This document shows positions 2,659 to 29,304 of a stretch of 64,000 nt of DNA, piece after piece; the first letter of the stretch is position 1, and the number at the start of each line of letters is the position of its first letter. Made by a program: the position numbers and the translations under genes. The notes beneath the pieces were generated by a model, which was not told the DNA's origin, did no database searches, and saw only the letters and a program-made list of their open reading frames with translations. Origin of the DNA: Candidatus Aenigmatarchaeota archaeon (lineage in GTDB: Archaea; Aenigmatarchaeota; Aenigmatarchaeia; CG10238-14); NCBI GenBank assembly GCA_018920365.1, contig JAHLMM010000001.1, positions 274,165 to 338,164 of the forward strand, written 5' to 3'.

Positions 2659-2667
2659 CCTAATGAT

Positions 2668-5323: not shown

Positions 5324-5352
5324 TTTAATTAATAAAATCATTAATATATTGT

Positions 5353-7105: not shown

Positions 7106-7107
7106 AA

Positions 7108-7506
7108 TTATTTTTTGCACAATGAGTTTATCAATTCTGTTACTTGATCTATTGCTTCTTGTTTGTCTATATTAATAGGAACTCCTATTATTGTAACTCT
7201 ATCAATCATATTTGTGTTTTTCATCAGTTTGAGTGTGTATGCCAAATCAAAATCATGCACTGAAAGTATTCTGTTCACTTCCAAAATGTCTATGTTCGTT
7301 ATCAATTCAACTTTGCTTATACCTTCAACTGAATCCAAAATATAGAGGTTTCTTCCTTCTTTTTGCAAATCCTCAACAGCGTCAAATTCCTTGAATTCTA
7401 TATTTGGAAATTTCTTTTGCAAGGTTGTTATTAATGATGGAGGCAAACTATCCTTTCTTACAAGAGGGTTGCCAAAGACTAGAATTTTTGTTATTTTCGT
7501 CATCAA
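7108..7506 (-). CDS. Hydrogenase maturation endopeptidase (HycI/HoxW-like)
   Basis: 132 aa, size and 'ILVFGNPL...' pattern typical of the family. It sits convergent and adjacent to the large-subunit gene. Confidence 0.65.
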   Translation of the reverse strand: MMTKITKILVFGNPLVRKDSLPPSLITTLQKKFPNIEFKEFDAVEDLQKEGRNLYILDSVEGISKVELITNIDILEVNRILSVHDFDLAYTLKLMKNTNMIDRVTIIGVPINIDKQEAIDQVTELINSLCKK

Positions 7507-7582
7507 TAATTATGTTATTTTTAAAATTTATTTTTATTTGATAATCATCAAGTATTAATCTTTAATTCTTTTATTCTTTTCA

Positions 7583-13860: not shown

Positions 13861-14138
13861 GCAAGAGGCGCGCTCTTGGTGGGAATAGCTTCAACAGCTA
13901 GAGTTTTCTGGTTCTTGTTCTCCACCTTGCTAACTCGCGAGCACAGGAGTGTATGCCTTATGGCTGCTCGGTTCCCCGCCTGACCAGGTTCAACATACAC
14001 ACTGTCCCGGGAGACAAGGCTTCTCAGTTCAAGAACCAGGTCTAGCCGCCAAAGCTAAGCCGCCCTTGAACTTCGATCCCGCCGTATACCGGGTTTGCGG
14101 CAACAGGGTACCGGTAGCACCCCGATCTAGCCTCTTGC
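13861..14138 (-). ncRNA. ffs: Signal recognition particle RNA (7S/SRP RNA)
   Basis: A roughly 55% GC island in an AT-rich genome. The minus strand contains the domain IV helix 8 motif 'GGUCAGGCGGGGAACCGAGCAGCCA' (compare bacterial 'GGUCAGGUCCGGAAGGAAGCAGCCA') with a GGAA tetraloop. A terminal helix (gcaagaggc...gcctcttgc) bounds a roughly 278-nt RNA. Confidence 0.8.
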
Positions 14139-14581: not shown

Positions 14582-15318
14582 TTATGAAAAAATACAAACT
14601 GCTGCTTGGTAGAAGGAAATATGTTGTTGATTTATCTAGAGAAAAGTTTAACACACAATTTGGGGAAATAGATTTGAAAAAACTGAAGAAAGCAAAGGTT
14701 GGCGAAAAGATAAAAACTCATAAAGGAGAGGAGTTTACAATAGCAGAGCCATCTTTGATTGATTTGCTTGAAAAAAAAGCCAAGAGGTTACCACAGATAA
14801 TAACACCTCAGGATGCTGCTATGATTTTGGCATATACAGGTTTGGCCAACGATAGCATCATAATTGATGCCGGTGCCGGATCTGGTTTTTTGAGCATATT
14901 TTTAGCTTATTATTGCTGTAAGGGCAAGGTAATATCTTATGAAGTAAATCAAAAATCCGCAAAGATAGCTGAAGAAAACGCAAGATTGATTGGATTGAAA
15001 AATTTGACGATAAAAAACAAGGATATTTTACAAGGAATAGACGAAAGAAATGTTGATGCTGTTACGCTTGATATGAAAGATGCTGAAGAAAATGTGGAAA
15101 ATGCTTACAATGCTTTGAAAAAAGGCGGTTGGTTGATTGTATACTCACCGTATATAGAGCAGGTGAAGCATGTTATTGAAAAAATCGAAAAGATGTTTTT
15201 TACCGAAGTCAGAACAGTGGAATGCATAAAAAGAGAATGGCAAGTAAGCGATTATACAAGACCCAAAACGCTTGGATTGATGCATACAGGATGGCTTACT
15301 TTTGCTAGGAAATTCTGA
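14578..15318 (+). CDS. trmI: tRNA (adenine-N1)-methyltransferase TrmI-like
   Basis: SAM motif 'IIDAGAGSGFLS' and the GCD14/TrmI-like 'GGWLIVYSPYIEQV'. Confidence 0.6.
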   Translation: MIMKKYKLLLGRRKYVVDLSREKFNTQFGEIDLKKLKKAKVGEKIKTHKGEEFTIAEPSLIDLLEKKAKRLPQIITPQDAAMILAYTGLANDSIIIDAGAGSGFLSIFLAYYCCKGKVISYEVNQKSAKIAEENARLIGLKNLTIKNKDILQGIDERNVDAVTLDMKDAEENVENAYNALKKGGWLIVYSPYIEQVKHVIEKIEKMFFTEVRTVECIKREWQVSDYTRPKTLGLMHTGWLTFARKF

Positions 15319-15468
15319 ATATATTTTCATGTCATATAATTAATGAATACACATTTCACAATGCTTCAAATGTATAACATAGATCCTACAAAATTTTAGT
15401 AAGATTGGACAATAAAGGTGATTTGATTTTTTATTAAAAAAGAAATGTAAAAATTATAAAAATCAAAA

Positions 15469-15705
15469 TTATTTTTTGTATTTTTTTCTAACTTTATGAT
15501 AATATATAAATGCGCCGATTATTCCGGTGATGAGAATAACTAACAACCATGATATTTTGACCTTTTCTCTAGAAAATTTTCTTTTGATAACATCAACTAA
15601 CATAAGAATCCAAAAAATTACCAGGCCTATGGCTATTGTATATAATATTAATCTAAATATAAACAAAAATCCATAAATTAATACTACATCAATACCGTAT
15701 GTCAT
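15469..15705 (-). CDS. Small two-TM membrane protein, PLDc_N-like
   Basis: 78 aa with two TM helices and a 'WILMLVDVIKRKF' motif shared with the C-terminus of the adjacent gene. Confidence 0.35.
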   Translation of the reverse strand: MTYGIDVVLIYGFLFIFRLILYTIAIGLVIFWILMLVDVIKRKFSREKVKISWLLVILITGIIGAFIYYHKVRKKYKK

Positions 15706-15709
15706 TTAT

Positions 15710-16390
15710 TCACCAATTTTGATATTGTATATTTTGCTGTTGGTTTTGATATTCTTTTTGTTTTTCCTGTTTCTTCAATTTTCTTCTAACAATAAAGAAG
15801 TACAAAATAGCCCCTAAAAACCCTGTCAATACCATGACAATTATCCATACTGTCTTGTTTTCAAACTGCCTGTTTATCGCATCAATCAGCATCCAAAGCC
15901 AAAATGCACCTAAGACTAAAAGAATTATAAACACAATTAATAGTATTTTCCCAACAAATTCAAACACATATTCTGATCCTAGTTTTTGATGGAAATCAGT
16001 ATCTACAAGCAACCATGAATCTCCGATTTTTTCAAAAATGAAATAGTTTGGCATGCCATTTATACTCCAATCACCACCTTTAGCGGAATAGACGCCATTC
16101 ACCTTTACTTGACTGTTTTCCAAATCTTCGTAAGAACTTATACTTTGTTCAAATTTTATTTTTTGGCCTGCAATATTATTTTCTATTTCACTTCTAAGTT
16201 CAGGTCTTGCATTTGGAGATATTATGCTAAAAATCGAGTCTAAGTCGTTATTGTTTATCGAATTTTCAATTGTAATTATTTGGTTTTGAATCTCTATCTT
16301 ATCAGAATAAGAAATTTGGCCTAAAACTAGTGGAAAAATGAACAGAATTATTTGGAAAATAACAAAATTTCTTGTTTTTGCCATAATCAC
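15710..16390 (-). CDS. Secreted/membrane protein with C-terminal PLDc_N-like two-TM domain
   Basis: Signal/TM N-terminus. The C-terminal 'WLWMLIDAINRQF...AILYFFIVRRK' is paralogous to 15469..15705. Confidence 0.35.
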   Translation of the reverse strand: MIMAKTRNFVIFQIILFIFPLVLGQISYSDKIEIQNQIITIENSINNNDLDSIFSIISPNARPELRSEIENNIAGQKIKFEQSISSYEDLENSQVKVNGVYSAKGGDWSINGMPNYFIFEKIGDSWLLVDTDFHQKLGSEYVFEFVGKILLIVFIILLVLGAFWLWMLIDAINRQFENKTVWIIVMVLTGFLGAILYFFIVRRKLKKQEKQKEYQNQQQNIQYQNW

Positions 16391-16852
16391 ATATTTTTTG
16401 ATTAATATTTATAGTTTTTTATTAATGTTAAATTCAGTTAACATAATTAAAATTTTAACTTGATTAATAAGATTATAAATAATACTGTGATTTTTGGCCC
16501 CATTATAAAAAATTTCCGTTAAAATAAAATTTTAACATGAATACAGTTACATTTCAAGATTCCACAAAAAAATATTAACACAACAGCTTTTTTTGAAATC
16601 TCTATAATATTCAAATATATATAGTTGGAGTAGTTGCGATTGAAGAATTTATCCAAAAAAAATACTTCAATTTAGTTGGAAAACAAAGACAAAACAAGAA
16701 TTAGATATATGATGATATTGCTGACAGAATTTAAAAAAATTATTAGAAAATTAAAATACCAGATTATAACAAGTTTGTATTTATGAAAATTTTATTAATA
16801 ACAGTTAAATTATATCAATTTTATATGAAAATTTGGAAGCCTAAGTAAATCA

Positions 16853-18100
16853 TTATTTTAAGGAGTTCGAGTTTTTTATCGATTTTTTTAATACAAAGAA
16901 TAGAGCTATTGATAGAATTTCAATGCAGACTAATGAAGCTATCATTAAAGTTATGGAAATTTCATACAAATATCCAGAAAAAACGCTGCCAAAGAACAAG
17001 GCTAGACCATATATTACATTAAAAATACCATACCCTGTTCCACGTTTTGATATCGATGTTAAATCAGCAATTGCTGCTTTCATTATTGTTTCGTGTGAAC
17101 CCATCACAACTCCCCAAAAAAATACTGCAATCAATATTAATGCTATATTATAAGAGAATATAAATGGAAGAAGTATAGCAGTAAGTATAGGCACAAAAAA
17201 CAAAATCAATAGTCCTGCGTTTTCATTTTTGTGTTTTATTTTCATATTGTCGTAAATTTTTCCTAATATTATCCCGAATATTGCATCAACACTCATAGCA
17301 ATAGCATATAAAAAAGGTATTTGTGCGTCGGATGCGATGCCATTTATCTTCAAGTGATATCCAACGATTGCAAAGTTAATAAAGCCTACAGTGGTAACAA
17401 ATGCAAAAAACGAGTATACCCAGAAAACTTTTGATATTTTTGAAGATTCTATTTTGTTCTTTGTTTTTTCAAGGTCACTTGGTGTTTTAAACTTGAAAAA
17501 AGTGATTAATAAAATAATTATCAAAATCACAAATGGAAACCAAAGCAGGCTGTAACCACGTTGATAATCTGCCGCTGTTTTTTGTGCGACTCCTAAATAT
17601 ATAAAAAAAAGCGTGAATATCAAAGGTCCGACTGTTGCACCAATCTGATCTATAAACTCAGAGATACCAAAACCAAAACCAGTACCAACCTGTTTGGTTG
17701 CATGAGAAACTAGTGTGTCTCTTGCCGGACTTCTTAATCCTTTACCAATTCTTTCAAGTACAATAAATACTGCTGCAAGTTGCCAATAATTAGATAAAGC
17801 TAGTAATGGTACTGTAATAAGCAAACTATATCCTAAAATTGTGAAAAACCAATGCGCTTTTGCTTTGTCGGAAAAATAACCTGAAAATAAACGGATTGCG
17901 TAACCCAGTAACTCTCCTATACCTACAACTAACCCTATAATTACCGCATTTGCACCGAGTGTATTTAGAAAAGGCCCATTAACACTTCTTGCTCCTTCAT
18001 AAATAATGTCTCCAAGTAAACTTATTATTCCGAAAAGCAATATGAGGATAATTGCCTTTTTCTTGTTTTCATTGAATTTCCCAAAGTGTTTTTTAAACAT
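16853..18100 (-). CDS. MFS transporter
   Basis: About 12 predicted TM segments with MFS-like loop motifs ('GKGLRSPARD'). Confidence 0.65.
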   Translation of the reverse strand: MFKKHFGKFNENKKKAIILILLFGIISLLGDIIYEGARSVNGPFLNTLGANAVIIGLVVGIGELLGYAIRLFSGYFSDKAKAHWFFTILGYSLLITVPLLALSNYWQLAAVFIVLERIGKGLRSPARDTLVSHATKQVGTGFGFGISEFIDQIGATVGPLIFTLFFIYLGVAQKTAADYQRGYSLLWFPFVILIIILLITFFKFKTPSDLEKTKNKIESSKISKVFWVYSFFAFVTTVGFINFAIVGYHLKINGIASDAQIPFLYAIAMSVDAIFGIILGKIYDNMKIKHKNENAGLLILFFVPILTAILLPFIFSYNIALILIAVFFWGVVMGSHETIMKAAIADLTSISKRGTGYGIFNVIYGLALFFGSVFSGYLYEISITLMIASLVCIEILSIALFFVLKKSIKNSNSLK

Positions 18101-18301
18101 AAATCCAATTAGGATTGGTTTGTATTTAAATTTGTTGAACTTGTGGCATTAACAGAAGTTTTCGCTTGCGAAAATTTGGGGAAAATTCGCAGAATTTTCC
18201 CTCTTAATCGCTGTTCAACGACCTAAAAAGGCAAATTCTTGATGAATTTAAGTATGAGTTTAGACGCCAATTTTAAATAAAATGAATAATATAAAAATAT
18301 T

Positions 18302-18475
18302 ATGGGAATGGGTAGCTTTCTTGACAAAATAACCAACACTGCTAAAAAATTTACGGAAAAAATACAAACAGATGTAAAAAGAAGAGAGGAAATAAAAATA
18401 TTGAAAGAGAAATATCTTTCTAGACTTTCTCAAAAAGAATTGATTACTTTATATAAAATGTATTTTAGTGATTAA
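18302..18475 (+). CDS. Small hypothetical protein (57 aa) abutting the downstream gene
   Basis: ATG at 18302 and TAA at 18473-75, immediately followed by the ATG at 18476. It is not in the ORF track because it is under 60 aa. Confidence 0.3.
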   Translation: MGMGSFLDKITNTAKKFTEKIQTDVKRREEIKILKEKYLSRLSQKELITLYKMYFSD

Positions 18476-19195
18476 ATGGTTAAAAGAAAAGATCCATTTG
18501 ATATGGATTTTGATATAGAACCAATAGATCTTTCTTTTCAAAAAAGAAAAGACCCAAATAAAATGTCTAAAGTAGAATTAATACGGGAGTTAGCAAATAA
18601 TATTTCAGAAAAAGATTTATATAAATCTCTTATCAGATTAGGAAAACAAAATATGGCTGAAGAATTTCAAAGTGAAATAGAATTAATTGAGAGAAAATAT
18701 GAGAAACAATTTTCTAATATAGATGGAAAAGAAACTGATATTGGTGATAAAATATTAGACTCTATTACAGATGAAATTATAAAAAATATGAAAGAAATAT
18801 ATAGACTTTCTTTTCATCCAAAGGATGAGATAGATTTTCATCATCAGTTAGAACCTTTTTTAAAGGGAATGATGTCAAATATGGAAAATTCTTTATCCAA
18901 GTTTGGATGGAAGACAAAAGTAGAGAGGGAACATGTACTGCCTTCAAATGAAAGAATAGATTTGTTAATTTCGATAGGGAATCTAAAAATAGGCATAGAA
19001 GTTAAATATGATTTAGATGAAACATCACAATTACAGAGGCTTTTAGGACAAATAGATAGATATTTACCTTATTTAGATATAATAATGATAGTTTCATATA
19101 GACCTTTAAATCAAAAAACATTATTATCTATTAAAAATAAAGAAATTGAGAAAAATAAAAAAATAAGGATATTGACACCCCATAAAATAATATAG
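18476..19195 (+). CDS. Hypothetical protein with PD-(D/E)xK-like motif
   Basis: 'ERIDLLISIGNLKIGIEVKYD' fits a D...ExK nuclease-core pattern. No other recognisable family. Confidence 0.4.
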   Translation: MVKRKDPFDMDFDIEPIDLSFQKRKDPNKMSKVELIRELANNISEKDLYKSLIRLGKQNMAEEFQSEIELIERKYEKQFSNIDGKETDIGDKILDSITDEIIKNMKEIYRLSFHPKDEIDFHHQLEPFLKGMMSNMENSLSKFGWKTKVEREHVLPSNERIDLLISIGNLKIGIEVKYDLDETSQLQRLLGQIDRYLPYLDIIMIVSYRPLNQKTLLSIKNKEIEKNKKIRILTPHKII

Positions 19196-19355
19196 GCGTC
19201 TAAACTCAGATGGATAGGAATTATCTTAAAAAGCTGTTTGGTTTTATAACATCAAGAAAAACTAATCAAGAATGGACACAAAATGCATTGAATTATGGAT
19301 ATGATTTGGAAAAAAGTAAAAAATATAGACAGATAAATATTTATCAAAAATTTTA

Positions 19356-19545
19356 AGGCGCCCGAGTGATTGAAATGAACGTATGCAGATAAACGAAGTT
19401 GCCGAAGGCAATTTTGGTGAGGTTCTGCAAGAGCCGAAACGTTTATCTGCTGTTATACGCCCCGAGCCGATAGGCGAGAGTGCAATGTGGTCGAGGAGCG
19501 AAGCGACGAAGAAGTTGAAAAAGTGCCCCTTAATATTTTTTAAAA
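19356..19545. ncRNA. Candidate structured RNA of unknown class (GC-rich island)
   Basis: About 55% GC against a roughly 30% background, lying between convergent gene ends. There is a perfect 11-bp helix (19385-19395 with 19440-19450) extended by a 5-bp helix (19380-84 with 19455-59). An internal hairpin 19398-19412 reads cUUCGg on the minus strand. Confidence 0.35.
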
Positions 19546-20537
19546 ACTTCATCAAAGTATTTAATTAGATCATTAATTTGTTCTACTTCTGTGATTACAA
19601 TTTCCGTCGGTAAATGGTTTGTATAGTGTCCAATAGACCTAACATCTCTAAATGGTATATTGAAATTTTCTGGCTTAATATCATTAATCTTGGCTTTTGA
19701 ATAATAAACTAAGCTATTTTTCCTAACTACGCACGAGAATATCATGTTATTATTCTTGAAGAAACCTATATAATGCTTCATTGGAGATATTTTTATATTC
19801 TTTGATTTTAGATGATTGAGGAATAAATTGAATATAGAAGATATTTTTTCAGGTTTATTTTTAAGGTGATATTCTAAAGTATATTCTTCTAATTTTAATC
19901 TTTCTTTTGAGGTAAGTATTTCATCTTCTGTTATCTCGCTGTCGCTGAATAATATTAATTCTTCTTTATTTTTAGTGAATAAAGAAACTTCAATTTTTCT
20001 AATTTTAACATTAATTGCTTTTTCAATTTGGGATAACCCTATACTTAATTCGGGTGAAATCCTATCAATAACCAATAGAATCTGTAAATCTTCCATTGAA
20101 TTATCTAATAGTTCATATACCTCTTTCCCAGTATCTTTTTGTAATTTATCAAAAATCTTTTTATTTTTCTTGATTTCGTTATATAGGAAATTCCTAACAG
20201 CGTCTAATTCTTCTACTGAAGCACTTTGGATAAATGAGATAAAGTTCCCTAATTGTGGCAATATATGTTTATCAATACCGTGTTTTTCTAATTCTATTTC
20301 AGTTATATAGAGAGATGGGGTCGTTGGGTTGTCCCAAACAAGAAGAAAACCATCACTAATTGAATGTTTAAAATTCTTAAAACTTTTACTTTTAACCTGT
20401 TTTTCTATTTTAATAAAAAGCGATTTATTAGAAACAATATTCTCATAATTTTTTGAAAATAAATCCGTTAATTCTTCTTCTTTTGAATATTCTTGTTTTG
20501 AATATTTTTCGTTGTTTTTTAATATCGTGTGCTTCAT
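19530..20537 (-). CDS. Hypothetical protein (335 aa), N-terminal PD-(D/E)xK-like motif
   Basis: 'LVWDNPTT...YITEIELEKHG' matches a D-x(n)-ExK pattern. The C-terminus carries an Rx6H-type 'RDVRSIGH'. No confident family assignment. Confidence 0.45.
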   Translation of the reverse strand: MKHTILKNNEKYSKQEYSKEEELTDLFSKNYENIVSNKSLFIKIEKQVKSKSFKNFKHSISDGFLLVWDNPTTPSLYITEIELEKHGIDKHILPQLGNFISFIQSASVEELDAVRNFLYNEIKKNKKIFDKLQKDTGKEVYELLDNSMEDLQILLVIDRISPELSIGLSQIEKAINVKIRKIEVSLFTKNKEELILFSDSEITEDEILTSKERLKLEEYTLEYHLKNKPEKISSIFNLFLNHLKSKNIKISPMKHYIGFFKNNNMIFSCVVRKNSLVYYSKAKINDIKPENFNIPFRDVRSIGHYTNHLPTEIVITEVEQINDLIKYFDEVFKKY

Positions 20538-20719
20538 ATTACAATACTAAATTATCAAGATATATAAATTTTATTAAAAGGAGCACTTTTCAATTGCACA
20601 TAAAAACTATTAAACGAACTTCTTTTAACCTTTAAACTAGCTTCAAATAACGAATAAATTATTTCGTCTTATTCAAAACTTGTACTATAACGAATATTCA
20701 CATAAAAATCAAAAAATTA

Positions 20720-21476
20720 AATTGTTTTTGTGAATAGCAAAAATTACACCATTGTCACCAAACTAATAAAAGAAATAAAACTAAGAAAATATTCGTATAA
20801 AACTGGGAAAAGATATATAGATATTGTCGTTAAATTTCCGAAATCAGGTAAAACATCAAAAGAATTTTTGTTATAAAGTTCAAAAAAGCAGATTCTACTA
20901 TGAGAATGTTCTAAATCAAAAATTTTATAAGAAAATACCATATTTAAAACCAAGATTAAAACTGCCAAAAGTTCTAAGAAAAGAAGACGTAACAAAAATG
21001 ATAGATGTTGTGAAAAATACAAAACATGAGCTATATTATCAGCGCTTTATTATACAGGTTTGCGTTTGAACGTTTGAGCAAAGAAACTTGAGGTGGGATG
21101 ATATAGATTTTCAGAGACATATTTCATATAAAGAAGGCTAAAGGTGACAAAGAATTGTTTTTTAGATGAGAAACTAAAACAATCGCTGAGGAATCTGGGA
21201 ACAAAACAATATGGGCTTGTATTTATCTAATCCAGAGGTGGAAAATATAGCAAAAGAACAATACAAAAAATATTGAAAGATGCTGCGAGAAAAGCAAACA
21301 TTTCAAAGAAAATAATACCAAATTCATTAAGACATTCTTTTGCTACTCATCTTTTAGAAGCAGGAGTTGATATAAGATATATACAGCAGCTTTTAGGACA
21401 TAAAAACCTTCAAACAACTCAAATCTACACTCATGTAGCAAACAAAGACATAAAAAGGCTTGCGAATGCTATTTAA
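20720..21476 (+). pseudogene. Tyrosine recombinase/integrase (XerC/D-like), degraded by multiple frameshifts and stops
   Basis: Integrase-like peptides appear in three different frames: 'ITPLSPN', 'ADSTMRMF', 'LRWDDIDFQ', 'YGLVF'. The ending '[37 protein letters not shown]' carries the R-H-R-Y catalytic region. ORF-track pieces 20824..21069 and 21273..21476 are fragments of it. Confidence 0.65.
21426..21475. repeat. Direct repeat DR1 (integrase 3' end), att-like
   Basis: The 38-nt 'tacactcatgtagcaaacaaagacataaaaaggcttgc' plus about 12 similar nt. It is repeated at 23667..23716. Confidence 0.6.
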
Positions 21477-21517
21477 GTATAAATATTTAAAGTACAATAT
21501 ATACCTTTGGTGACCTT

Positions 21518-21682
21518 ATGAGTATAATTTATTCAATACCTGTAAAACCTATTAAAAATAATGGCGCATTTAAATGCACAATTCCAAAAGAAATAACAGA
21601 TAAAATTGGAATTAAAAAAGATAATAAGATTGTTTGGATTTTATATGATGATGGTAAAATAGAGGTTAAAATAGAGAAGTGA
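21518..21682 (+). CDS. AbrB/SpoVT/MazE-type swapped-hairpin DNA-binding protein (54 aa)
   Basis: 'AFKCTIPKEITDKIGIKKDNKIVWILYDDGKIEVK' is the classic AbrB-fold motif. It lies directly upstream of the methyltransferase and is under 60 aa, so it is absent from the ORF track. Confidence 0.5.
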   Translation: MSIIYSIPVKPIKNNGAFKCTIPKEITDKIGIKKDNKIVWILYDDGKIEVKIEK

Positions 21683-21688
21683 TTAATT

Positions 21689-22504
21689 ATGAAAACATTT
21701 TCAAAGAAAAATGAAATCAACATTAGTAAAATTACTGAAAAGCATATGAAAAATAATAATGTAAAAAAGTGGGAACCGGAGAATTTTGAACTTCAAACAA
21801 CAACAATATGGAGCTTTCCTAAAAGAGGCAATTGGGCAACTCATCGTGGAGACTATAGAGGCAATTGGGCACCAGAAATACCAAGGAACTTGATTTTAAG
21901 ATACTCAAAAAAAGGTGATATAGTTTTAGATCCTTTTGTAGGTTCTGGGACTACTATTATTGAGTGTAAATTGCTTGGAAGAAGAGGTATAGGTATTGAT
22001 ATAAATCCTGATGCGATAAAACTAGCTAAAAAAAGAATTGAATTTTCGAAATTGTTTGATGAACCTCAAGAATTGAGGGTTGGCGATGCAAGAGATTTAA
22101 GTTTTATAAAAAGCAACTCTATTGATTTAATTTGTGCGCATCCACCATATGCAGACGCTATACAATATACAGATGGAATAGAAGGCGATTTATCGTTTAT
22201 TAAAAATGTTGATGAATTTGTTAACGAGATAGGTAAAGTTGCTAAAGAATGTTACAGAGTATTAAAGCCTGGTAAATATTGTGGTGTCTTAATAGGAGAT
22301 ATAAGAAGAAAAAAACGCGTCATCCCTGTTGGATTCAAAGTTATGAACGAGTTTTTAAATGTTGGTTTTAATTTGAAAGAAATTATAATTAAACTTCAAC
22401 ATGAATGCAAAACTACGCCGTTGTGGGAGAAAAAATCTATAGAATATAATTTTTTACTTCTCGCGCATGAATATTTATTTGTTTTTGAAAAGTTAGAAAA
22501 ATGA
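21689..22504 (+). CDS. N6-adenine/N4-cytosine-type methyltransferase (DNA MTase, possibly RNA MTase-like architecture)
   Basis: 'HRGDYRGNWAPEIPRNLILRYSKKGDIVLDPFVGSGTT' (motif X-I) is followed by 'ICAHPPYAD' (motif IV). Confidence 0.6.
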   Translation: MKTFSKKNEINISKITEKHMKNNNVKKWEPENFELQTTTIWSFPKRGNWATHRGDYRGNWAPEIPRNLILRYSKKGDIVLDPFVGSGTTIIECKLLGRRGIGIDINPDAIKLAKKRIEFSKLFDEPQELRVGDARDLSFIKSNSIDLICAHPPYADAIQYTDGIEGDLSFIKNVDEFVNEIGKVAKECYRVLKPGKYCGVLIGDIRRKKRVIPVGFKVMNEFLNVGFNLKEIIIKLQHECKTTPLWEKKSIEYNFLLLAHEYLFVFEKLEK

Positions 22505-22531
22505 TTCGGATCTACATAAATTTCTTTTGAT

Positions 22532-23077
22532 CTACTTAGTAGCATATTTAGTTGGTGGTGGCCAATTGCGAACAGCATTAGTTATAATTTTGTCAATCTC
22601 TTCTTCCCCTGATGCTACCCATCTTATAAACCTCATAAGAAATTCTCTCGGCGGTTCAACTTTTCCCTTTTTACAACCACCAGAACCATAATTGAACTCT
22701 TGCTCTATCATTAAAAGCTGCATATAATACAAATTAACATCTGGGTCATCTAGTTGCATTGGAAATTTTAGTTTTAAGAGTTCATTTGAATATTTTTCTG
22801 GGTCATCACCATCATATACGTTTTCTATAATAGAGAATAATTTCTTTGCATCATCTTCGTTACTCAATCTTTTAAGATACAAATCAAATAATAATCTTAC
22901 GTGCGTTGGTCTAAATTCTTTTCTTTCTGGTATTAGAAGTGAAACAGCAAAATCATGAGGACATATCTTATCAGTTCTTATAGCAAAAATTTTAGTTTTA
23001 TTTTGGCTCGTATAAATTAATTTATGCTCATTTAATTTCATTCCTCTTAATATAGGAAATAAATCTAACATTCTCAT
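22532..23077 (-). CDS. Hypothetical protein, possible small restriction endonuclease partner
   Basis: 181 aa, convergent with the MTase. 'PHD-x9-ERK' could be a PD-(D/E)xK core. The assignment is weak. Confidence 0.3.
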   Translation of the reverse strand: MRMLDLFPILRGMKLNEHKLIYTSQNKTKIFAIRTDKICPHDFAVSLLIPERKEFRPTHVRLLFDLYLKRLSNEDDAKKLFSIIENVYDGDDPEKYSNELLKLKFPMQLDDPDVNLYYMQLLMIEQEFNYGSGGCKKGKVEPPREFLMRFIRWVASGEEEIDKIITNAVRNWPPPTKYATK

Positions 23078-23132
23078 AATTATTATTTCATAAAAAAGAT
23101 TAAATTAATATAACTTTTCATTAAATAATAGT

Positions 23133-23447
23133 ATGCCAGAAAATATTATTTTAGAATGTCCATTTTGTCATAAAAAAACAGTGAACGTTATTTATTATCC
23201 ATCTATTTTACAAGCTTCTACCTCTAGGGCTGCTGGGAGAACAGTGACGAAATACTATAAAACTAAAGAAAAATATGAAGTTTTGTCAGATTGCTCTAAT
23301 TGTGGTAAAAAAATAAAAGAAATACAAAAAGCTTTGGAAGGAGAAAAAAAAGATCCAGATAAGGAAAAGGAAATAATTGAAAGATTAAAAAAACAAGGAT
23401 TGTTTATGGATGAAATAAAACAAAATTATAAGTCTAATAAGAGTTAA
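23133..23447 (+). CDS. Zinc-ribbon protein (CxxC...CxxC) with Lys/Glu-rich tail
   Basis: 'CPFCHKK...CSNCGKK'. Confidence 0.4.
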   Translation: MPENIILECPFCHKKTVNVIYYPSILQASTSRAAGRTVTKYYKTKEKYEVLSDCSNCGKKIKEIQKALEGEKKDPDKEKEIIERLKKQGLFMDEIKQNYKSNKS

Positions 23448-23666
23448 AATTTTCAACGATTTTGATTGTAATTATATATTTTTGAAGAAAATTTAGGTTT
23501 AACATATTATATTAATATTATTTTTTACGAGGTAAAATTTTAAGAAAAATCAAGTCTAGCTCAATATATATTCAACACCTAAGATACGAAAATGTAACTT
23601 ATTCAAGTGATGAATTTGTTGATATAATGGTATTTACTAGCGAAATAAACAAGATGTGTTCAATTA

Positions 23667-23716
23667 TACACTCATGTAGCAAACAAAGACATAAAAAGGC
23701 TTGCAAACGCCATTTA
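23667..23716. repeat. Direct repeat DR2, copy of integrase 3' end
   Basis: 38/38 identity to 21426..21463 and similar flanks. It is an isolated copy about 2.2 kb downstream of the integrase pseudogene. Confidence 0.6.
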
Positions 23717-23792
23717 AAAAATTTTCTAATGAATAGCAACTAAAACTTAAATACCTCAAAATTAGATATTAATCTTATCAGGTGATAAAAAC

Positions 23793-24086
23793 ATGAATCC
23801 ATGGCTGAAAATACTTATAGGTTTGGTTTTGCTTGGATTGCCTCTAGCATTATACGCATATGACATAATGACACCTGGACCAGTGGTTACATTCAATATT
23901 TTAGGTAGAGACATACAACTATCCCCTGTAAGAGCATTTCTAACAGTGCTAGAAGGTACAGTTCCACCATTCTTGGCATTGATCGGCTTGTTCATCGTAT
24001 GGCTAGAACTTGACGAGCTAAGAATAGAAAGGGAATTGAAGCAAGAGGAAGAAGAGGAAGAAAAACCAAAGAAAAAGAAAAAGTAA
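23793..24086 (+). CDS. Small membrane protein with poly-Glu/Lys tail
   Basis: Two TM helices and a C-terminal 'EEEEEEKPKKKKK'. Confidence 0.35.
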   Translation: MNPWLKILIGLVLLGLPLALYAYDIMTPGPVVTFNILGRDIQLSPVRAFLTVLEGTVPPFLALIGLFIVWLELDELRIERELKQEEEEEEKPKKKKK

Positions 24087-24092
24087 GTTGAT

Positions 24093-25124
24093 ATGGGAGT
24101 ACAGATATCTCAACTCTTGCCAAAACAAGAGATAAAAATAGAAGAGCTTGCAGGCAAAAGAATAGCCATAGATGCTTTTAATATAATTTTTCAATTTCTT
24201 TCAATTATTCGACAGAGAGAGACAGGCGAACCTCTTAGAGATAGCAATGGCAGAATAACATCCCATTTGTCTGGTTTGTTTTATAGAAACTTGAGATTTC
24301 TTGAATCTGGATTGAAGCCAATATATGTTTTTGACGGCAAGCCACCTGATTTTAAGAAAAAGACAATAAAAGAAAGAGAGGCTAAAAGAGAAGAGGCTGC
24401 AAAAAAATGGGAACAAGCTATTAAAGAAGGAAGAAAAGAAGATATAATGGTTTATGCACAAGCTTCTTCCAAACTAACAGATGAAATGATCAAGGAAAGC
24501 AAACTGCTTTTGCAATCTTTAGGCATACCTGTCATTCAAGCAGCTTCAGAAGGTGAGGCACAAGCAAGCTTTATGGTTATGAAAGGTGACGCTTTCTCCT
24601 CAGCCAGTCAGGATAGCGACTCGCTGCTTTTCGGTTGTCCACGTCTAGTCAGAAATCTGTCAATATCAGGAAAGAGAAAAATGCCGAGGCAAGAGAAATG
24701 GATTGACGTTAATCCTGAAATGATAGAGTTACATTCAGTCTTGAAAGAATTGAACATAACAAGAGAGCAACTTATATGCATAGGTCTGCTTGTTGGTACT
24801 GATTACAATGATGGCATAAACGGAATAGGACCGAAAAAGGCTTTGGCATTAGTTAAAGAAAAATCAGTCGATCAAATTTTAGCTGAAACAGATTGGAATA
24901 GTGAATATGATATAAATGAAATATTTGATTTTTTTGTCAATCCACACGTGAATAAAGATTATGAAATAAAATTTGGAGAAATTGACAAAGAAGCTGTGAA
25001 GAAAATAATGGTTGATGAGCATGATTTTTCTGAGCAGAGAATAGATAATGCTTTGGATAAAATAATTCAACAAAAGAAAAAAGGATCTCAGTCAAGTTTG
25101 TCAGGCTGGTTTAAGAAATCTTGA
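24093..25124 (+). CDS. fen1: Flap endonuclease 1
   Basis: 'MGVQISQLLP' start, XPG-N and XPG-I motifs, and 'GIGPKKALALVKE' in the H3TH region. Confidence 0.9.
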   Translation: MGVQISQLLPKQEIKIEELAGKRIAIDAFNIIFQFLSIIRQRETGEPLRDSNGRITSHLSGLFYRNLRFLESGLKPIYVFDGKPPDFKKKTIKEREAKREEAAKKWEQAIKEGRKEDIMVYAQASSKLTDEMIKESKLLLQSLGIPVIQAASEGEAQASFMVMKGDAFSSASQDSDSLLFGCPRLVRNLSISGKRKMPRQEKWIDVNPEMIELHSVLKELNITREQLICIGLLVGTDYNDGINGIGPKKALALVKEKSVDQILAETDWNSEYDINEIFDFFVNPHVNKDYEIKFGEIDKEAVKKIMVDEHDFSEQRIDNALDKIIQQKKKGSQSSLSGWFKKS

Positions 25125-25791
25125 ATTTTTTGAAAAACTTATCCAACCCCTTTTGCTCATATTTCTTCACAATTTCCTGAACAGTCTCCCAAGTTGTTCT
25201 TATGTTTTTCGGCATTTTGCCATTATTCTCTTTGGCCAATTTTTCCAGAAATTCTATTGTCTTTTGATCATGGCTGTAGCCAACGCCAAAATCATAGTTG
25301 AATTCTTTTTTCAATTTTTCAATCTTACTATCTCTCTCAACTTTTGCAATTATTGATGCAGCTGAGACAACTGGATAATTTTTGTCAGCATAATTTTCAA
25401 AAACAAATTTTGCTTTTTTTTCATTTTCATCCAATTTTGAAAAGAGAAAATCTCTAAATTTATTGCTGTTAAAGCTTGGCGTGTCTATTATAATCTTATC
25501 AGCAGGCACCATGTTTATTATGTCAGCCATTTTCAAGGCTTCAATCTGATTTAAGTTGATGCCGCTTTTCCTCATAGAATCTATATTGCATGCAGAAACA
25601 CTAAGGACAACAACATTTTCGGCAATCTCATCAATTTTTTTTGCCAATTCCTCTCTTTTTTTAGGCGTTAATTCTTTTGAATCTCTTACCCCAATTTTTT
25701 TTAGTTCATCCTGCCGGCTTTCATCTATTGTCAACCCACAAATAACAAGCGGTCCTATTACAGCACCCCTTCCTGCTTCATCAATACCCAT
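25111..25791 (-). CDS. rnhB: Ribonuclease HII
   Basis: 'MGIDEAGRGAVIGPLVICG' with DEDD residues. Confidence 0.9.
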   Translation of the reverse strand: MGIDEAGRGAVIGPLVICGLTIDESRQDELKKIGVRDSKELTPKKREELAKKIDEIAENVVVLSVSACNIDSMRKSGINLNQIEALKMADIINMVPADKIIIDTPSFNSNKFRDFLFSKLDENEKKAKFVFENYADKNYPVVSAASIIAKVERDSKIEKLKKEFNYDFGVGYSHDQKTIEFLEKLAKENNGKMPKNIRTTWETVQEIVKKYEQKGLDKFFKKFKIS

Positions 25792-25850
25792 TATTTTGAT
25801 AGTATCACCTGAAATTCAATAAAATATATTTTAATTGCTAATAGAAATAC

Positions 25851-26276
25851 ATGCTTGCAGACAATTTAGCTGAAAGACTGAAAAAAGGCGAATTAATAGA
25901 AGAAGCATTATCATCACATGATTGGAAGGACTTTGAAAGGATTGTTGAAGAAATATTTCAATTTCACGGATTTGCTACAAAAAGAAATTTTAGATTCAAG
26001 AATGAAAAGAGATATGAGATTGATATAATAGCTGAGTCAGATTCAGTTGTTTTTTGTGTTGATTGCAAGAGATGGGGTAAGGGAAGATACAAGCATTATG
26101 CGTTGAGAAAAGCAGCTGAAAGGCAAATGGAAAGAGCATCAAAAATAGCTTCTTCAAAACGAACTATACCTTTAATAATAACATTAATGGACGAGCAGAT
26201 GCAAAGTCAGCAAGTATATTTTATTCCCATATGGAAGCTTAACGAATTTCTAAGCTGCTGGGAGATGTATTTTTAA
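25851..26276 (+). CDS. PD-(D/E)xK nuclease, Hjc/Mrr-catalytic-domain-like
   Basis: 'FERIVEEIFQFHGF...EIDIIAE...VFCVDCKRW' matches the restriction-endonuclease-fold core. The 141-aa size fits a Holliday-junction-resolvase-like protein. Confidence 0.45.
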   Translation: MLADNLAERLKKGELIEEALSSHDWKDFERIVEEIFQFHGFATKRNFRFKNEKRYEIDIIAESDSVVFCVDCKRWGKGRYKHYALRKAAERQMERASKIASSKRTIPLIITLMDEQMQSQQVYFIPIWKLNEFLSCWEMYF

Positions 26277-26328
26277 ATGCCTATTTAAATATTTATAAAG
26301 TTTTATATAGTAGAATGGAGGTGTATTA

Positions 26329-26880
26329 ATGACCAAATTCAATATAAAAATAGAAAACATCGTTGCTTCTGCATCGCTAGGCGTTCGCGTGCCGCTTGAA
26401 AAAATGATAAAATATCTTGAAGGTACTGAATACGAGCCTGAGCAATTTCCTGGCTTGGTTTACAGGGTTAAAGATCCTAAGGCTGCGACATTAATCTTCT
26501 CATCAGGCAAAATTGTCTGCACAGGCGCTAGAAGCATTGAAGATGTCAAAAGAGTTGTAAAAAAAGTTATTGATGCAATCAAAAGCGCTGGCATAGGCAA
26601 CCCAACAAAATACACTGTGCAGATAGAAAACATCGTCGCATCAGCAAAGCTAAAATCAACACTTAATCTAGACAAAATAGCATTTGAAGTCGAAGAATCT
26701 GAATACGAGCCTGAGCAATTTCCTGGCTTGGTTTTGAGAATGAGAAACCCTAAAGTGGCTTTCTTGCTTTTCTCATCAGGCAAAATAGTATGCACTGGAG
26801 CAAGAAAAATAAAGGATGTTGAGTCTGCAGTTGAAATGCTGTCAGGAAAGTTGAAAAGCATAGGAGCACTGAATGAATAG
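26329..26880 (+). CDS. tbp: TATA-box binding protein
   Basis: Two direct repeats, each 'ENIVASA...PEQFPGLV...FSSGKIVCTGAR'. Confidence 0.9.
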   Translation: MTKFNIKIENIVASASLGVRVPLEKMIKYLEGTEYEPEQFPGLVYRVKDPKAATLIFSSGKIVCTGARSIEDVKRVVKKVIDAIKSAGIGNPTKYTVQIENIVASAKLKSTLNLDKIAFEVEESEYEPEQFPGLVLRMRNPKVAFLLFSSGKIVCTGARKIKDVESAVEMLSGKLKSIGALNE

Positions 26881-26928
26881 ATTTCATTCCAATAAAACAT
26901 AAGAATATCAACAATAAACAATTAGATT

Positions 26929-28953
26929 ATGGAAAGCAGGGAAATACTAGACGAATTTGTCGATTTTCTGAGAACAAATTATTACAGGGAATTGGCAGAC
27001 GTTTTTTCCAAAGGCGAGAGATCGATATTCATAGATTTTGCTCTGATAGATAAATACAAACCTGATTTAGCCGACTTGCTGCTTGAAAAACCTGAAGATA
27101 CATTGAAACTTTTTGAGGCTGCTGTCGAGCAGATTGATTTGCCTGAAAAGAGAAGCATAAAAATAAGGCTTTTTAATTTGCCTAAGAGCGCTGAAATTAG
27201 GATAAGGAATATAAGGTCAGAGCATTTAGGAAAGCTTTTATGTGTTGACGGCATTGTCAAAAGAGCGTCTGAAATTAGGCCTGAAGTTTCTGAAATAGTT
27301 TTTCAATGTGGCGAGTGCGGGGAGAAAATAGTTGTGCTTCAAACAGAAAAGGAAAAAACTCTTGTCTACCCTTCAATGTGTGATAATTGTAAATCAAAAA
27401 GAGGTTTTAAAGTTCTTGATCAAAAGTTGTATGATGCAAGATGGGTTGCAATCGAAGAGCCTTTTGAGATAACTACAGGTGAAAGGCCGTCAGAAATCAT
27501 GATTTATTTGAAAGAGGATTTGACATCGCCTAAAATGCAGTCAAAAACAGACCCAGGAAACAGAATCAAAGTCATAGGCATCTTGAAAGAATTGCCTAGA
27601 AGGACTTCAAAAGGAGGAAAGACAAGACAGATGGAGATATTGTTGGATGCTAACAATGTTGAATCGACTCAAATAGAATGGGAGGAACTTGTTATAAGCG
27701 AAGAAGAGGAAGCTCAAATAAAAGAGTTGGCAAAAGACCCGAAAATATATGATAAGCTTGTTTCATCTCTTGCTCCAAGCATGTATGGTTTGGATGTTGT
27801 AAAGCTTGCTATTGTTATGCAGTTCTTTGGCGGTGTTCCTAAGATTTTGAAGGATGGTACGAGAATAAGAGGTGATATACACATTCTGCTAGTCGGCGAT
27901 CCGGCTGTTGGTAAAAGTCAGTTGCTTAAGCTAGCTTCACAAATGATGCCTAGAGGTAAGTATGTTTCAGGTAAAGGCGTCACTGGCGCAGGTTTGACGG
28001 CAGCTGTTGTTAAAGATGAGCAGTTTTTAGGCGGATGGGTCTTGGAAGCAGGAGCTCTTGTGCTTGCGAACAATTCTATAATAGCAATAGACGAGTTTGA
28101 TAAAATGGAAAAAAGCGATCAGGTTGCTATGCACGAAGCAATGTCTCTGCAGCAAATATCAATAGCCAAAGCATCTATTGTTGCTACTCTACCTGCAAGG
28201 ACATCTGTTTTAGCTGGTGCTAATCCAAAATTAAGCAGATTTGACCAATACAAGCCAATAGGTGAGCAGGTGGACATACCTGAGACACTGTTAAGCAGGT
28301 TTGATGTCAAATTTGCTTTAAGAGATATACCAAATCCTGAGGTTGATGAAAAGATGATCGACCATCTTTTAATGTCGAGGCATTTCAATGAAGAGGAAAT
28401 GATGCCATTAATCAATTCAGATTTGCTGAAAAAATATGTTGCTTATGCAAAGATGCACTGCAATCCTATAATGACAAAAGAGGCGGCAAAGAAATTGAAG
28501 GATTTTTACATAGAGATGAGGAGCAAGTCATCTATATCAGGCGAGGTACAAGCTGTTGCTATAACAATGAGACAATATGAAGCTTTGGTTAGATTGGCAG
28601 AAGCAAGCGCTCGAGTTCAGTTGAGAGAGTTTGTGACGCCTGAAGATGCTGATCGGGCAATTGAGATAATGAAGTTTTCACTTAGACAGTTTGGTTTTGA
28701 TGAAAAGACAGGCACGTTTGATATTGATAAAGCAGAAGGTGGTGTAAGCAGTGCTCAAAGAAGCAAGATAAAGATTGTAACTGATATAATTGAGGAGCTT
28801 GAAAGAGAGATGCAGTCAAAATCAATACCTATTGACGATCTGAGAAAAAGAGCTCAAGAACAAGGCGTTGGCGATGTTGATAATATAATCAGAAAAATGA
28901 AAGAAGAAGGCATTGTCTTTGAGCCAAAGCACGGATTTATTCAGAGGATTTAG
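26929..28953 (+). CDS. mcm: MCM replicative helicase
   Basis: Zn-finger 'CGEC...CDNC', Walker A 'GDPAVGKSQ', Walker B 'IDEFDKM', and the arginine finger 'SRFD'. Confidence 0.9.
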   Translation: MESREILDEFVDFLRTNYYRELADVFSKGERSIFIDFALIDKYKPDLADLLLEKPEDTLKLFEAAVEQIDLPEKRSIKIRLFNLPKSAEIRIRNIRSEHLGKLLCVDGIVKRASEIRPEVSEIVFQCGECGEKIVVLQTEKEKTLVYPSMCDNCKSKRGFKVLDQKLYDARWVAIEEPFEITTGERPSEIMIYLKEDLTSPKMQSKTDPGNRIKVIGILKELPRRTSKGGKTRQMEILLDANNVESTQIEWEELVISEEEEAQIKELAKDPKIYDKLVSSLAPSMYGLDVVKLAIVMQFFGGVPKILKDGTRIRGDIHILLVGDPAVGKSQLLKLASQMMPRGKYVSGKGVTGAGLTAAVVKDEQFLGGWVLEAGALVLANNSIIAIDEFDKMEKSDQVAMHEAMSLQQISIAKASIVATLPARTSVLAGANPKLSRFDQYKPIGEQVDIPETLLSRFDVKFALRDIPNPEVDEKMIDHLLMSRHFNEEEMMPLINSDLLKKYVAYAKMHCNPIMTKEAAKKLKDFYIEMRSKSSISGEVQAVAITMRQYEALVRLAEASARVQLREFVTPEDADRAIEIMKFSLRQFGFDEKTGTFDIDKAEGGVSSAQRSKIKIVTDIIEELEREMQSKSIPIDDLRKRAQEQGVGDVDNIIRKMKEEGIVFEPKHGFIQRI

Positions 28954-29304
28954 GGACATAGATTTCAGATATAGGTGTTGTGATTAATATATTTTCTTTA
29001 AAAGCAAAAATCATTCTTGCTCCTTTTTCTGGTTCAGAAAGTTGTTTATTTGGATTATTGGGGTCAATGTATCCTTTCAAATTACCGTTATATTGGCTAG
29101 AACCATCATAAATTTCCCCTTCATTTGTTATTAAGTGTGTTTTGTGTTTGTACAACGTAAATGTAAGTTGACATACCAAATATTTTATCAAAAATATTAT
29201 TTAAACTTTTGTATATTTTACTACATAATAGTAATATATTTAACTATAAGCTCAAAACATACCAAAATTGAATTTTTATTAAATTTGCACAGTAATTTAA
29301 TTTT

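Follow-up and report, generated by a model that had tools for sequence, protein, structure and literature searches.

An island of about 5.5 kb lies between the gene for a major facilitator superfamily (MFS) transporter and the FEN-1 gene in the genome of a Candidatus Aenigmatarchaeota archaeon. It was analysed within a 64-kb window, the whole stretch of DNA under study, and coordinates are positions in that window unless another locus is named. From left to right the island carries an operon for proteins of 57 and 239 amino acids (aa), a GC-rich structured element, a 335-aa gene on the opposite strand, a tyrosine recombinase pseudogene and a four-gene restriction-modification (R-M) cassette comprising an AbrB/SpoVT-like protein, a DNA methyltransferase, a convergent gene of 181 aa and a Zn-ribbon protein. 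The open reading frames of the original prediction, which was made from the letters of the DNA, were all found where it had placed them. The window as a whole is AT-rich (32% GC); the island has a GC content of 0.283 as against 0.324 in the rest of the window, and falls below all equal-sized windows taken elsewhere (mean 0.323, minimum 0.287). Proteins of the window were also matched on a contig of assembly GCA_038999715.1, the context denoted here L001.

Scanning species-representative genomes with the FEN-1 protein identified two relatives, both Candidatus Aenigmatarchaeota: L005, the closest, with a FEN-1 identity of 95%, and L006, with 76%. A blastn comparison with L005 yielded the conserved blocks 14603-16530, 20602-21476 (the recombinase region, 85% identity) and 23660-29034 (92%), of which the last two overlap in L005 by exactly the 58 nucleotides (nt) that are repeated in the window (L005 9568-9625). 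The L005 order is an intact recombinase gene of 261 aa, followed directly by a 97-aa membrane protein gene and FEN-1. Since the flanking blocks adjoin in L005 at the end of the intact recombinase gene, the segment 21477-23659 is an insertion. The recombinase is the sole island protein that the two loci share; L005 encodes there neither the MFS transporter nor the 57-, 239- and 335-aa, AbrB-like, 181-aa and Zn-ribbon proteins, and has in their place a CAP/zf-AN1 protein, a Schlafen-type helicase, a DUF6996/DUF6997 protein, a beta-class N6/N4 methyltransferase and LemA. From L006 both the recombinase and the island as a whole are absent. Synteny with L006 breaks at ~23758, and upstream of its 97-aa gene stand genes from ~44.4-54.2 kb of the window, inverted, so a rearrangement breakpoint falls at the right edge of the island. 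In neither relative do MFS and FEN-1 stand next to each other. The island's gene order is conserved in neither L005 nor L006, and the data support the view, already held by the original prediction, of a horizontally acquired and strain-variable island in a core informational neighbourhood. We also observed that the segment from ~23758 to ~44400 is inverted or rearranged relative to L006, one breakpoint lying just beyond the repeat at the recombinase end, and that in L005 the region 3250-7228 holds other cargo of a defence type, with the Schlafen group 3 helicase (653 aa) and the DUF6996/DUF6997 gene, convergent with that of the beta-class methyltransferase, a pair that is likely another R-M system.

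The insertion is bounded by a direct repeat of 58 nt with 91% identity, whose copies lie on the plus strand at 21419-21476 (left, attL-like; exact core 21427-21463) and 23660-23717 (right, attR-like; exact core 23668-23704), at a spacing of 2241 nt. The exact core of 37 nt has only these two occurrences in the window, and 0 of 100 shuffles gave such a match; the repeat of the integrase end that had been predicted around the methyltransferase cassette is thus real. The left copy keeps the recombinase frame and its stop codon. After the core it reads GCGAATGCTATTTAA, with three synonymous differences from the ancestral allele, encodes the same ...LANAI-stop and runs directly into the cassette. 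The 3' part of the right copy is identical to the ancestral L005 sequence (GCAAACGCCATTTAAAAAATTTTC...) and continues into the conserved flank, and upstream of this copy similarity to the recombinase gene fades after ~17 nt. On its right side the cassette ends in an AT-rich non-coding arm (23448-23659, 22% GC). The 2.24-kb cassette was inserted cleanly within the last 17 codons of the recombinase gene and regenerated the gene's end. Because the left copy carries a synonymous variant end, the right copy the ancestral one, and the core is exact, the pattern is that of recombination between two similar, non-identical sites inside the identical core.

The same four-gene cassette was found in another Aenigmatarchaeote (L012), between the PIF1 and ELP3 genes, where the DNA is 80% identical to the window over 21471-23077 and 73% over 23133-23427. 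As the four genes occur together at a different locus, the cassette is a mobile unit. It encodes no recombinase, and we infer that the neighbouring recombinase, then intact, performed the insertion. A Logan contig of 2263 bp, corresponding to 21434-23696 with ends that overlap in the repeat, was considered as an excised circle and rejected, its length being that of a k=31 unitig between the 37-nt repeats. The viral collection IMG/VR held no copy of the recombinase-end core, none of the 20-nt motif described below and no relative of the 181-aa protein.

The XerA-like tyrosine recombinase pseudogene occupies 20730-21476 on the plus strand and matches Pfam Phage_integrase (1e-20) with its last 67 aa. 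Alignment with the intact L005 gene revealed five indels (-35, -1, +4, -2 and -5 nt) and one GAA>TAA nonsense codon, demonstrating that the recombinase that had been described as multi-frameshifted is a true multi-lesion pseudogene. The L005 protein aligns with positions 3-261 of the 263 of the NCBIfam model recomb_XerA_Arch at 206.7 bits (cut-off 220), and is matched by the integron-integrase model in two separate stretches only, indicating that it lacks the IntI-specific domain. No other tyrosine recombinase is encoded in the 64-kb window. The region upstream of the pseudogene (20602-20729, plus strand) is conserved with L005, where a copy of the 20-nt motif immediately precedes it; the corresponding 20-24 nt of the window have diverged. 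Position 20602 had been considered as a sharp recombination junction and was dropped, as on alignment the preceding 24 nt resemble a diverged copy of the motif.

The methyltransferase of the cassette (271 aa, 21689-22504, plus strand) is of the circularly permuted N6/N4 type. Pfam N6_N4_Mtase matched in two permuted stretches (1.2e-32), the Protein Data Bank (PDB) structure 2zie (T. thermophilus TTHA0409) in two swapped pieces, and motif I (DPFVGSGTT) precedes motif IV (HPPY), so that both required motifs are present. The PADLOC model MTase_II PDLC03376 was matched over its full length (1-249/249, 2.6e-92). More than 7800 homologues were found, many of which, in Firmicutes and other phyla, are ~60-65% identical, and at one metagenome locus (L017) a 57.6%-identical methyltransferase adjoins a DpnII-family endonuclease (PF04556, 5.9e-17). 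Models of RNA methyltransferases (Trm11/Trm5/RsmD-like) scored far lower, below their cut-offs. The MTase_II match, the DpnII neighbour and a partner gene in all of the seven contexts described below show that the enzyme is of an R-M-linked family and not of the housekeeping RNA type that would have told against the original prediction.

Six nt upstream of the methyltransferase gene lies that of the small AbrB/SpoVT-like DNA-binding protein (54 aa, 21518-21682, plus strand). The predicted reading frame is present, but the family assignment is weak, with Pfam MazE_antitoxin at 7.3e-4 (19.9 bits) and NCBIfam AbrB at 7.5e-5 (22.4 bits), both below cut-off. An 83%-identical copy accompanies the L012 cassette, and in L007 and L009 a ribbon-helix-helix (RHH) protein stands in its place. 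Since another small DNA-binding protein holds the same position in other phyla, a role as candidate controller fits. The Zn-ribbon protein (104 aa, 23133-23447, plus strand), divergent from the 181-aa gene, has two CxxC pairs and a weak winged-helix-like C-terminus; a 69%-identical copy is present in L012, and the protein, a possible regulator, travels with the cassette within Aenigmatarchaeota only.

Convergent with the methyltransferase gene is that of its 181-aa partner (22532-23077, minus strand), a predicted restriction endonuclease. Its 269 homologues, 55-91% identical and all unannotated, occur in Aenigmatarchaeota, Nitrososphaerota, Bathyarchaeia, Thermoproteota and Dehalococcoidia, and an exhaustive profile search among 1.84 billion representatives gave 83 clusters at 50% identity. 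All members are single-domain proteins of up to 247 aa, with no fusions, and the distant ones contain no Pfam domain. A tblastn search of plasmids and phages with the 181-aa protein gave no match. The invariant residues are D42, H59, R61, D65, Y67, K69, E85, D110, N115, Q120, E125, Q126, N129, R152, W153 and D162. The nuclease core PHD...ERK proposed earlier for this protein did not hold up, as E51-R52-K53 vary among homologues and a structure model of high confidence (predicted local distance difference test, pLDDT, 95) has no nuclease-fold match. Likewise, the conserved D...(D/E)XK motif on an alpha-beta-beta-beta-alpha-beta core that would mark a PD-(D/E)XK enzyme was not found. As a speculation, residues ~29-72 might form a small beta-beta-alpha-metal site.

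The 181-aa gene adjoins a DNA methyltransferase gene in 7/7 contexts examined (L001, L012, L007/L008, L009, L010, L037 and L038), which span Aenigmatarchaeota, Nitrososphaerota, Bathyarchaeia, Dehalococcoidales and two metagenome contigs and show three gene orientations and three types of methyltransferase. In L012 it is convergent with the same permuted methyltransferase as in the window. In L007/L008 and L009 it is divergent from a 46%-identical methyltransferase that is preceded by the small RHH protein, in L010 (Dehalococcoidales) convergent with an unrelated N6/N4 methyltransferase, in L037 placed between a D12 methyltransferase and a 58%-identical permuted one, and in L038 located beside a D12 methyltransferase alone. 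The D12 enzymes of L037 and L038 have DpnM (2dpm) as their best match (E 1.8e-69 and 6e-63), followed by E. coli Dam. Both DpnM and Dam are GATC adenine methyltransferases. As the contexts of homologues hold DpnM/Dam-like methyltransferases and a DpnII-family endonuclease, the cassette is probably a DpnII-like, GATC-specific R-M system with a non-homologous 181-aa endonuclease, the nuclease activity and the specificity of which are suggested by gene association.

The DpnII cassette of Streptococcus pneumoniae (dpnM, dpnA, dpnB; GATC) is likewise a compact type II system with a methyltransferase of the N6/N4 family. Homologues of the 181-aa protein stand beside DpnM-like D12 enzymes, the one in L037 being flanked by a DpnM-like enzyme and an N6/N4 methyltransferase, and the family of the window's methyltransferase pairs with a true DpnII-family endonuclease in L017. 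Unlike in the pneumococcal cassette, the endonuclease slot is held by an unrelated protein that lacks a DpnII domain, and the window has only the permuted N6/N4 methyltransferase with its HPPY motif, in addition to the AbrB-like and Zn-ribbon genes.

Left of the recombinase the island carries two nuclease units, and the orphan nuclease-like genes announced by the original prediction are correctly so called in the case of the 239-aa and 335-aa proteins, both of which match PD-(D/E)XK. The 57-aa protein (18302-18475, plus strand; no family in Pfam, PADLOC, NCBIfam or PHROGs) is the first of the two-gene operon, its stop codon abutting the ATG of the 239-aa PD-(D/E)XK nuclease (PDDEXK_4; 18476-19195, plus strand). 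The latter matches Pfam PF14281 at 2.5e-06 (28 bits, cut-off 22.3) and PADLOC PDC-S26 at 4e-06, and shows D...EVK in residues ~152-167. The operon is enclosed by a perfect inverted repeat of 13 bp, GAGTTTAGACGCC, at 18256-18268, with its complement at 19195-19207 (21 nt at 90%); the right arm overlaps the stop codon, and the repeat has no other occurrence in the window. A 48-aa reading frame between the 239-aa gene and the GC-rich element (19210-19356, plus strand) is publicly annotated as a gene (L001 13722-13868). The 335-aa solitary nuclease (19530-20537, minus strand) combines an N-terminal PD-(D/E)XK domain with a C-terminal DUF5655/YdhG-like domain. Its homologues, up to 92% identical in unrelated genomes, are widely transferred between phyla and lie there in defence neighbourhoods, with either a type IIG enzyme and an SNF2 helicase by an integrase insertion, or a MjaI R-M system and LemA. 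In L039-L042 a 92%-identical homologue (gene 6001-7008) lies beside a type IIG R-M enzyme and an SNF2 helicase in an unrelated organism, which points to recent transfer between phyla, and in some of these strains an extra integrase-bearing insert is present right beside it.

The GC-rich element is the most unexpected part of the island. As predicted, it is real, with 48% GC against ~28% for the island and a covarying structure. The copy denoted E2 (19357-19540, plus strand) scored 107.7 bits with covariance model R1 (19357-19460) and consists of a 20-nt motif, CCCGAGTGATTGAAATGAAC (19361-19380), a three-way-junction core that extends to 19460 and, 3' of it, an extension with a terminal T-run. 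It is homologous to L005 5366-5540, with compensatory changes in the stems. A diverged copy, E1 (18121-18221, plus strand; 37.7 bits, E 1e-6), covers the full length of the model; its 3' two-thirds are 86% identical to L005 5385-5465 in blastn, a likeness that ends exactly after the invariant CTGTT. E1 and E2 lie on the same strand and bracket the 57/239-aa operon. The L005 recombinase gene, at 8840, is preceded by three copies (5366, 7697 and 8689), and same-strand pairs were also detected in L014, L017, L030 and L034; in all these arrays and that of the window the copies are 0.6-3 kb apart. The covariance model found no copy in the remaining ~57 kb of the window or in L006, and those of the window and L005 are confined to the island. 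Neither did it find any beside the cargo genes in other phyla, indicating that the elements belong to the host lineage and not to the cargo. In our view the copies most likely mark earlier insertion junctions of the island.

RNAalifold analysis of nine copies demonstrated compensatory changes in 18/32 base pairs. With 18 copies 93.6% of cells were paired, with double changes in 23/32 pairs, and none of 500 shuffles was as good; slid controls paired at 35-48%, and the alignment had been fitted to the covariance model, a bias in its favour. In 18/18 copies the long stem ends in a closing AAC...GTT. What lies between these triplets is variable: L023 has a 4-bp hairpin there, L030 an 11-bp stem, and at the upper end stands a three-way junction whose inserts reach ~60 nt. 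Copies also differ in the sequence after GTT. E2 has a fold z-score of -3.0. Searches with Rfam 15, both at gathering thresholds and with E<=1, matched no family to the element in the window region or in 20 related loci, where the only matches were an unrelated signal recognition particle (SRP) RNA and a group II intron. The intron (RF02003, RF00029) lies in L023 at ~861-2857 (minus strand), 11 nt after a minimal copy of the element and ~0.8 kb from the SRP RNA gene.

The 20-nt motif, CCCGAGYGATTGAAATGAAC, was recovered from 24 metagenome loci (L013-L036) and from no viral contig; in L005 it lies at 5370, 7703 and 8693. It is followed variously by the three-way-junction body, by ~125 nt and then a XerA-like recombinase gene, or by unrelated genes. 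The arrangement with the recombinase occurs at L005 8693 and in L031/L033, whose 272-aa gene is 42% identical to that of L005, with a remnant in L035. A conserved upstream extension of ~200 nt, holding three tandem GAGCGNAWYGAA-like boxes, is present in many loci and makes up a unit of ~350 nt (for example L005 ~7530-7880). The window contains no copy of this 5' extension and hence no full-length unit.

Together these data suggest a strain-variable defence island that probably grew by serial site-specific insertions beside a XerA-like recombinase gene, the R-M cassette being one of the inserts. The left module consists of two solitary PD-(D/E)XK units (57+239 aa, and 335 aa) separated by structured element copies of ~105 nt. 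The cassette may have arrived in circular form, with an attachment site that imitates the final 17 codons of the recombinase gene, and a crossover in the 37-bp identical core would then leave the 58-bp imperfect direct repeat and regenerate the 3' end of the gene, as with islands that target tRNA genes. Once the recombinase gene had decayed, the island would have been frozen in place. The right module (21477-23659) would act as a self-contained type II R-M cassette, in which the AbrB-like regulator and the methyltransferase form one operon. The methyltransferase would protect host DNA, the 181-aa protein, in place of the unrelated R.DpnII of a DpnII-like system, would cut unmethylated incoming DNA, and the divergent Zn-ribbon protein would probably regulate the endonuclease.

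This mode of insertion has known counterparts. Islands that regenerate the ends of their targets (the 3' ends of tRNA, tmRNA and protein genes) share with it an imperfect direct repeat around the insert, a replacement 3' end supplied by the insert that leaves the target reading frame intact, and a crossover in the exact core. They differ from it in that the target here is the recombinase gene itself and that the cassette has no recombinase of its own. Integrative mobile elements exploiting Xer (IMEX), which use the host Xer enzymes at dif, are similarly free of a recombinase, flanked by duplicates of the site, situated here as there beside a Xer-family gene, and inserted serially; unlike at dif, no 11-6-11 palindrome was recognised in our case, and the site lies inside the recombinase reading frame. 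Archaeal integrases of the Sulfolobus spindle-shaped virus (SSV) type also have the attachment core within the recombinase coding sequence. In the window, by contrast, the gene is not split into flanking N- and C-terminal parts, only its last 17 codons (58 nt) are duplicated, a full-length gene stands left of the cassette, and the recombinase pre-exists without the cassette in L005.

Several observations weigh against the proposed reading or parts of it. No recombinase or flanking repeat surrounds the L012 cassette, and no circular or empty-site form was observed, the Logan contig being explained by de Bruijn assembly; visual inspection of the 37-bp core revealed no convincing dif-like 11-6-11 palindrome, and what immediately precedes the pseudogene may be a diverged site and not a junction. 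The original prediction envisaged a single integrative element, set between MFS and FEN-1 and degraded as a unit, and a recombinase pseudogene does lie inside a low-GC, non-syntenic block. The comparison with L005 contradicts this model, however, as L005 keeps an intact recombinase at the same place with different neighbours and no R-M cassette. In addition, the cassette is delimited by repeats of its own and is found by itself at another locus, and no repeat pair brackets the whole 5.5 kb. We therefore consider a single element very improbable: an acquired island with an R-M cassette stands, but as a composite of three parts, namely the solitary nucleases with the structured repeats, the decayed recombinase, intact and cassette-free in L005, and the discrete 2.24-kb cassette. 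The 58-nt duplication might also stem from homologous recombination with, or gene conversion by, a second recombinase copy that bore the cassette downstream. The 3' end of the left repeat copy is a synonymous variant of the recombinase gene, so the incoming DNA held a real fragment of such a gene. Yet simple homologous replacement leaves no second 58-nt copy beyond the insert, the similarity extends for only ~17 nt upstream of the right copy, and the differences cluster outside the 37-bp exact core, as a crossover in the core predicts; this route appears improbable to us. As to the cassette's function, the 181-aa protein has no match in Pfam, NCBIfam, PADLOC or PHROGs and no recognisable nuclease domain, its model matches no fold in the PDB, and an identity of 55-90% across phyla is unusually high for restriction enzymes. 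Motif IV of the methyltransferase, HPPY with its unusual His, is no textbook N6A or N4C signature, and GATC in the window is mildly under-represented (observed/expected 0.78), mid-range among palindromes, and was not used as evidence. The protein could accordingly be a DNA-binding regulator, a methylation reader or another accessory, leaving the methyltransferase effectively an orphan or regulatory enzyme, and the failure of every library to reveal a nuclease domain, motif or fold, the very high conservation and the small size of the family (83 clusters) favour this. We nevertheless think it unlikely, given that the gene keeps its link to a GATC-type methyltransferase whatever the type found at a locus (permuted N6/N4, other N6/N4, DpnM-like D12, or two at once) and while orientation and regulator vary, which is the pattern of a toxic enzyme in need of cognate protection, that ~20 invariant polar or charged residues suggest an enzyme, and that in L037 the protein holds the R.DpnII slot between DpnM-like and DpnA-like genes.

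For the structured element two further readings were weighed, beside that of insertion junctions in an island grown by serial insertion. One is gene capture of an integron-like kind, in which the element would be attC-like, the motif beside the recombinase attI-like, the XerA-like enzyme would take the role of IntI, and the array would be one-directional, with cassettes such as R-M systems, solitary nucleases and LemA being stockpiled in it. This reading agrees with the explanation given above, as far as the left part of the island is concerned, and would make it more precise. Integrons, including the archaeal ones (Ghaly et al. 2022, PMC9668308), likewise have a tyrosine recombinase beside a one-directional cassette array, imperfect hairpins with invariant AAC/GTT and a variable interior, and group II introns beside a site. 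Here, AAC...GTT closes a covarying imperfect hairpin in every one of the 18 copies, and the variable interior resembles an attC terminal structure, a range that a functional RNA is unlikely to tolerate. Same-strand arrays are formed in the window, L005, L014, L017, L030 and L034. At least two sites lie on one strand, less than 4 kb apart and next to an integrase, in the window (18121 and 19357) and L005. The motif immediately precedes recombinase genes in L005 and L031/L033 and lies by the remnant in L035, the sequence from GTT onwards is often like a canonical R' box (GTTATAC, GTTAGGC, GTTAAAC), and the L023 intron follows a minimal copy by 11 nt, as IIC-attC introns do. Unlike an integron integrase, however, the recombinase has 261 aa, aligns with XerA end to end and has no IntI-specific domain, and the elements have a 20-nt head and long extensions. 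The R'' box is AATGAAC with spacers of 4 nt and 1 nt, against RYYYAAC/GTTRRRY with 5-nt spacers, and R' is canonical in some copies only. A G-U pair on the given strand in 16/18 copies favours folding of the top strand or of RNA, and not of the bottom strand as in integrons, the cassettes are multi-gene and in both orientations, and the direction from AAC to GTT runs towards the recombinase gene, not away from it. Moreover, the canonical Aenigmatarchaeota attC (Data S9, PMC9668308) is a different sequence, and the elements do not accompany the cargo into other phyla. We hold this reading as a tentative possibility. In the other, the element would be a non-coding RNA gene of a new kind (~180 nt, or ~350 nt with the 5' extension) that serves as an integration target like tRNA and tmRNA genes, its partial copies being scars. 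Strong, strand-specific covariation, the conserved loops YGCARG and ATTTGGG, TATA-like boxes that in many loci precede the conserved start by ~24-27 nt, T-runs after the 3' extension and the fold z-score of -3.0 are in keeping with a gene, and L031/L033 look like junctions of the 5' part and motif with an integrase, other loci like junctions of motif and body. Against this, Rfam has no such family, an insertion at the motif would leave the 350-nt unit divided and unrepaired, the three-way junction is missing entirely from the minimal versions of L023 and L030, the window and L005 have their copies inside the island only, with none in the other ~57 kb or in L006, and the window has no full-length unit. 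We regard an RNA gene as an equally tentative possibility.

The borders of the island differ somewhat from those first proposed. Its start was placed at 18302, where the reading frames are real, but the stretch that varies relative to L005 begins at ~16531 and includes the MFS gene (16853-18100, minus strand; Pfam MFS_1 6e-27), which is missing from the L005 locus. As a 67%-identical MFS N-terminus also borders the element array of the metagenome locus L017, the transporter may be older flank rather than cargo. The claim that every gene between MFS and FEN-1 is uncharacterised or mobile fails for the core gene of the 97-aa membrane protein (23793-24086, plus strand), 100% identical in L005 and 87% in L006, which forms the right border. 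Further afield, an archaeal SRP RNA gene (Rfam RF01857, 135 bits) lies at 13862-14137 on the minus strand, ~4-5 kb left of the island, and a 124-nt tRNA match of Rfam at 61490-61613 (minus strand, 40.9 bits), uncalled by ARAGORN, probably represents a tRNA gene with an intron. The 141-aa Mrr_cat (PD-(D/E)XK) protein (25851-26276, plus strand), encoded between RNase HII and TBP, is kept in both relatives (87% and 54% identity) and is for this reason a core gene that does not belong to the island.

What makes the locus notable is a probable new endonuclease family, an insertion into the recombinase's own 3' end, and a new structured repeat arrayed like recombination sites. Taken jointly, it is conceivable, though rather unlikely, that the 181-aa protein is a new structural class of type II endonuclease, probably specific for GATC, that displaces R.DpnII in the DpnII-like cassettes of archaea and Chloroflexi, and that Aenigmatarchaeota and their relatives have a non-canonical, integron-like capture system. 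In the latter, a short XerA-type recombinase without the IntI domain may recombine the AAC...GTT elements and even accept cassettes in the 3' end of its own gene, and defence islands would be built up in this way. If the 181-aa protein is an endonuclease, it would bring a new fold to restriction enzymes, as a small and highly conserved enzyme whose specificity (GATC) is directly testable. That a recombinase-less defence cassette lands inside a recombinase gene and repairs it is an integration logic not commonly taken into account in drawing island borders. For finding such hot spots in metagenomes, the element with its 20-nt head provides easy markers. The arrays bear on the evolution of integron-like systems from Xer-type recombinases, and they suggest a locus dedicated to the swapping of defence genes in DPANN archaea, which are host-dependent and have tiny genomes.

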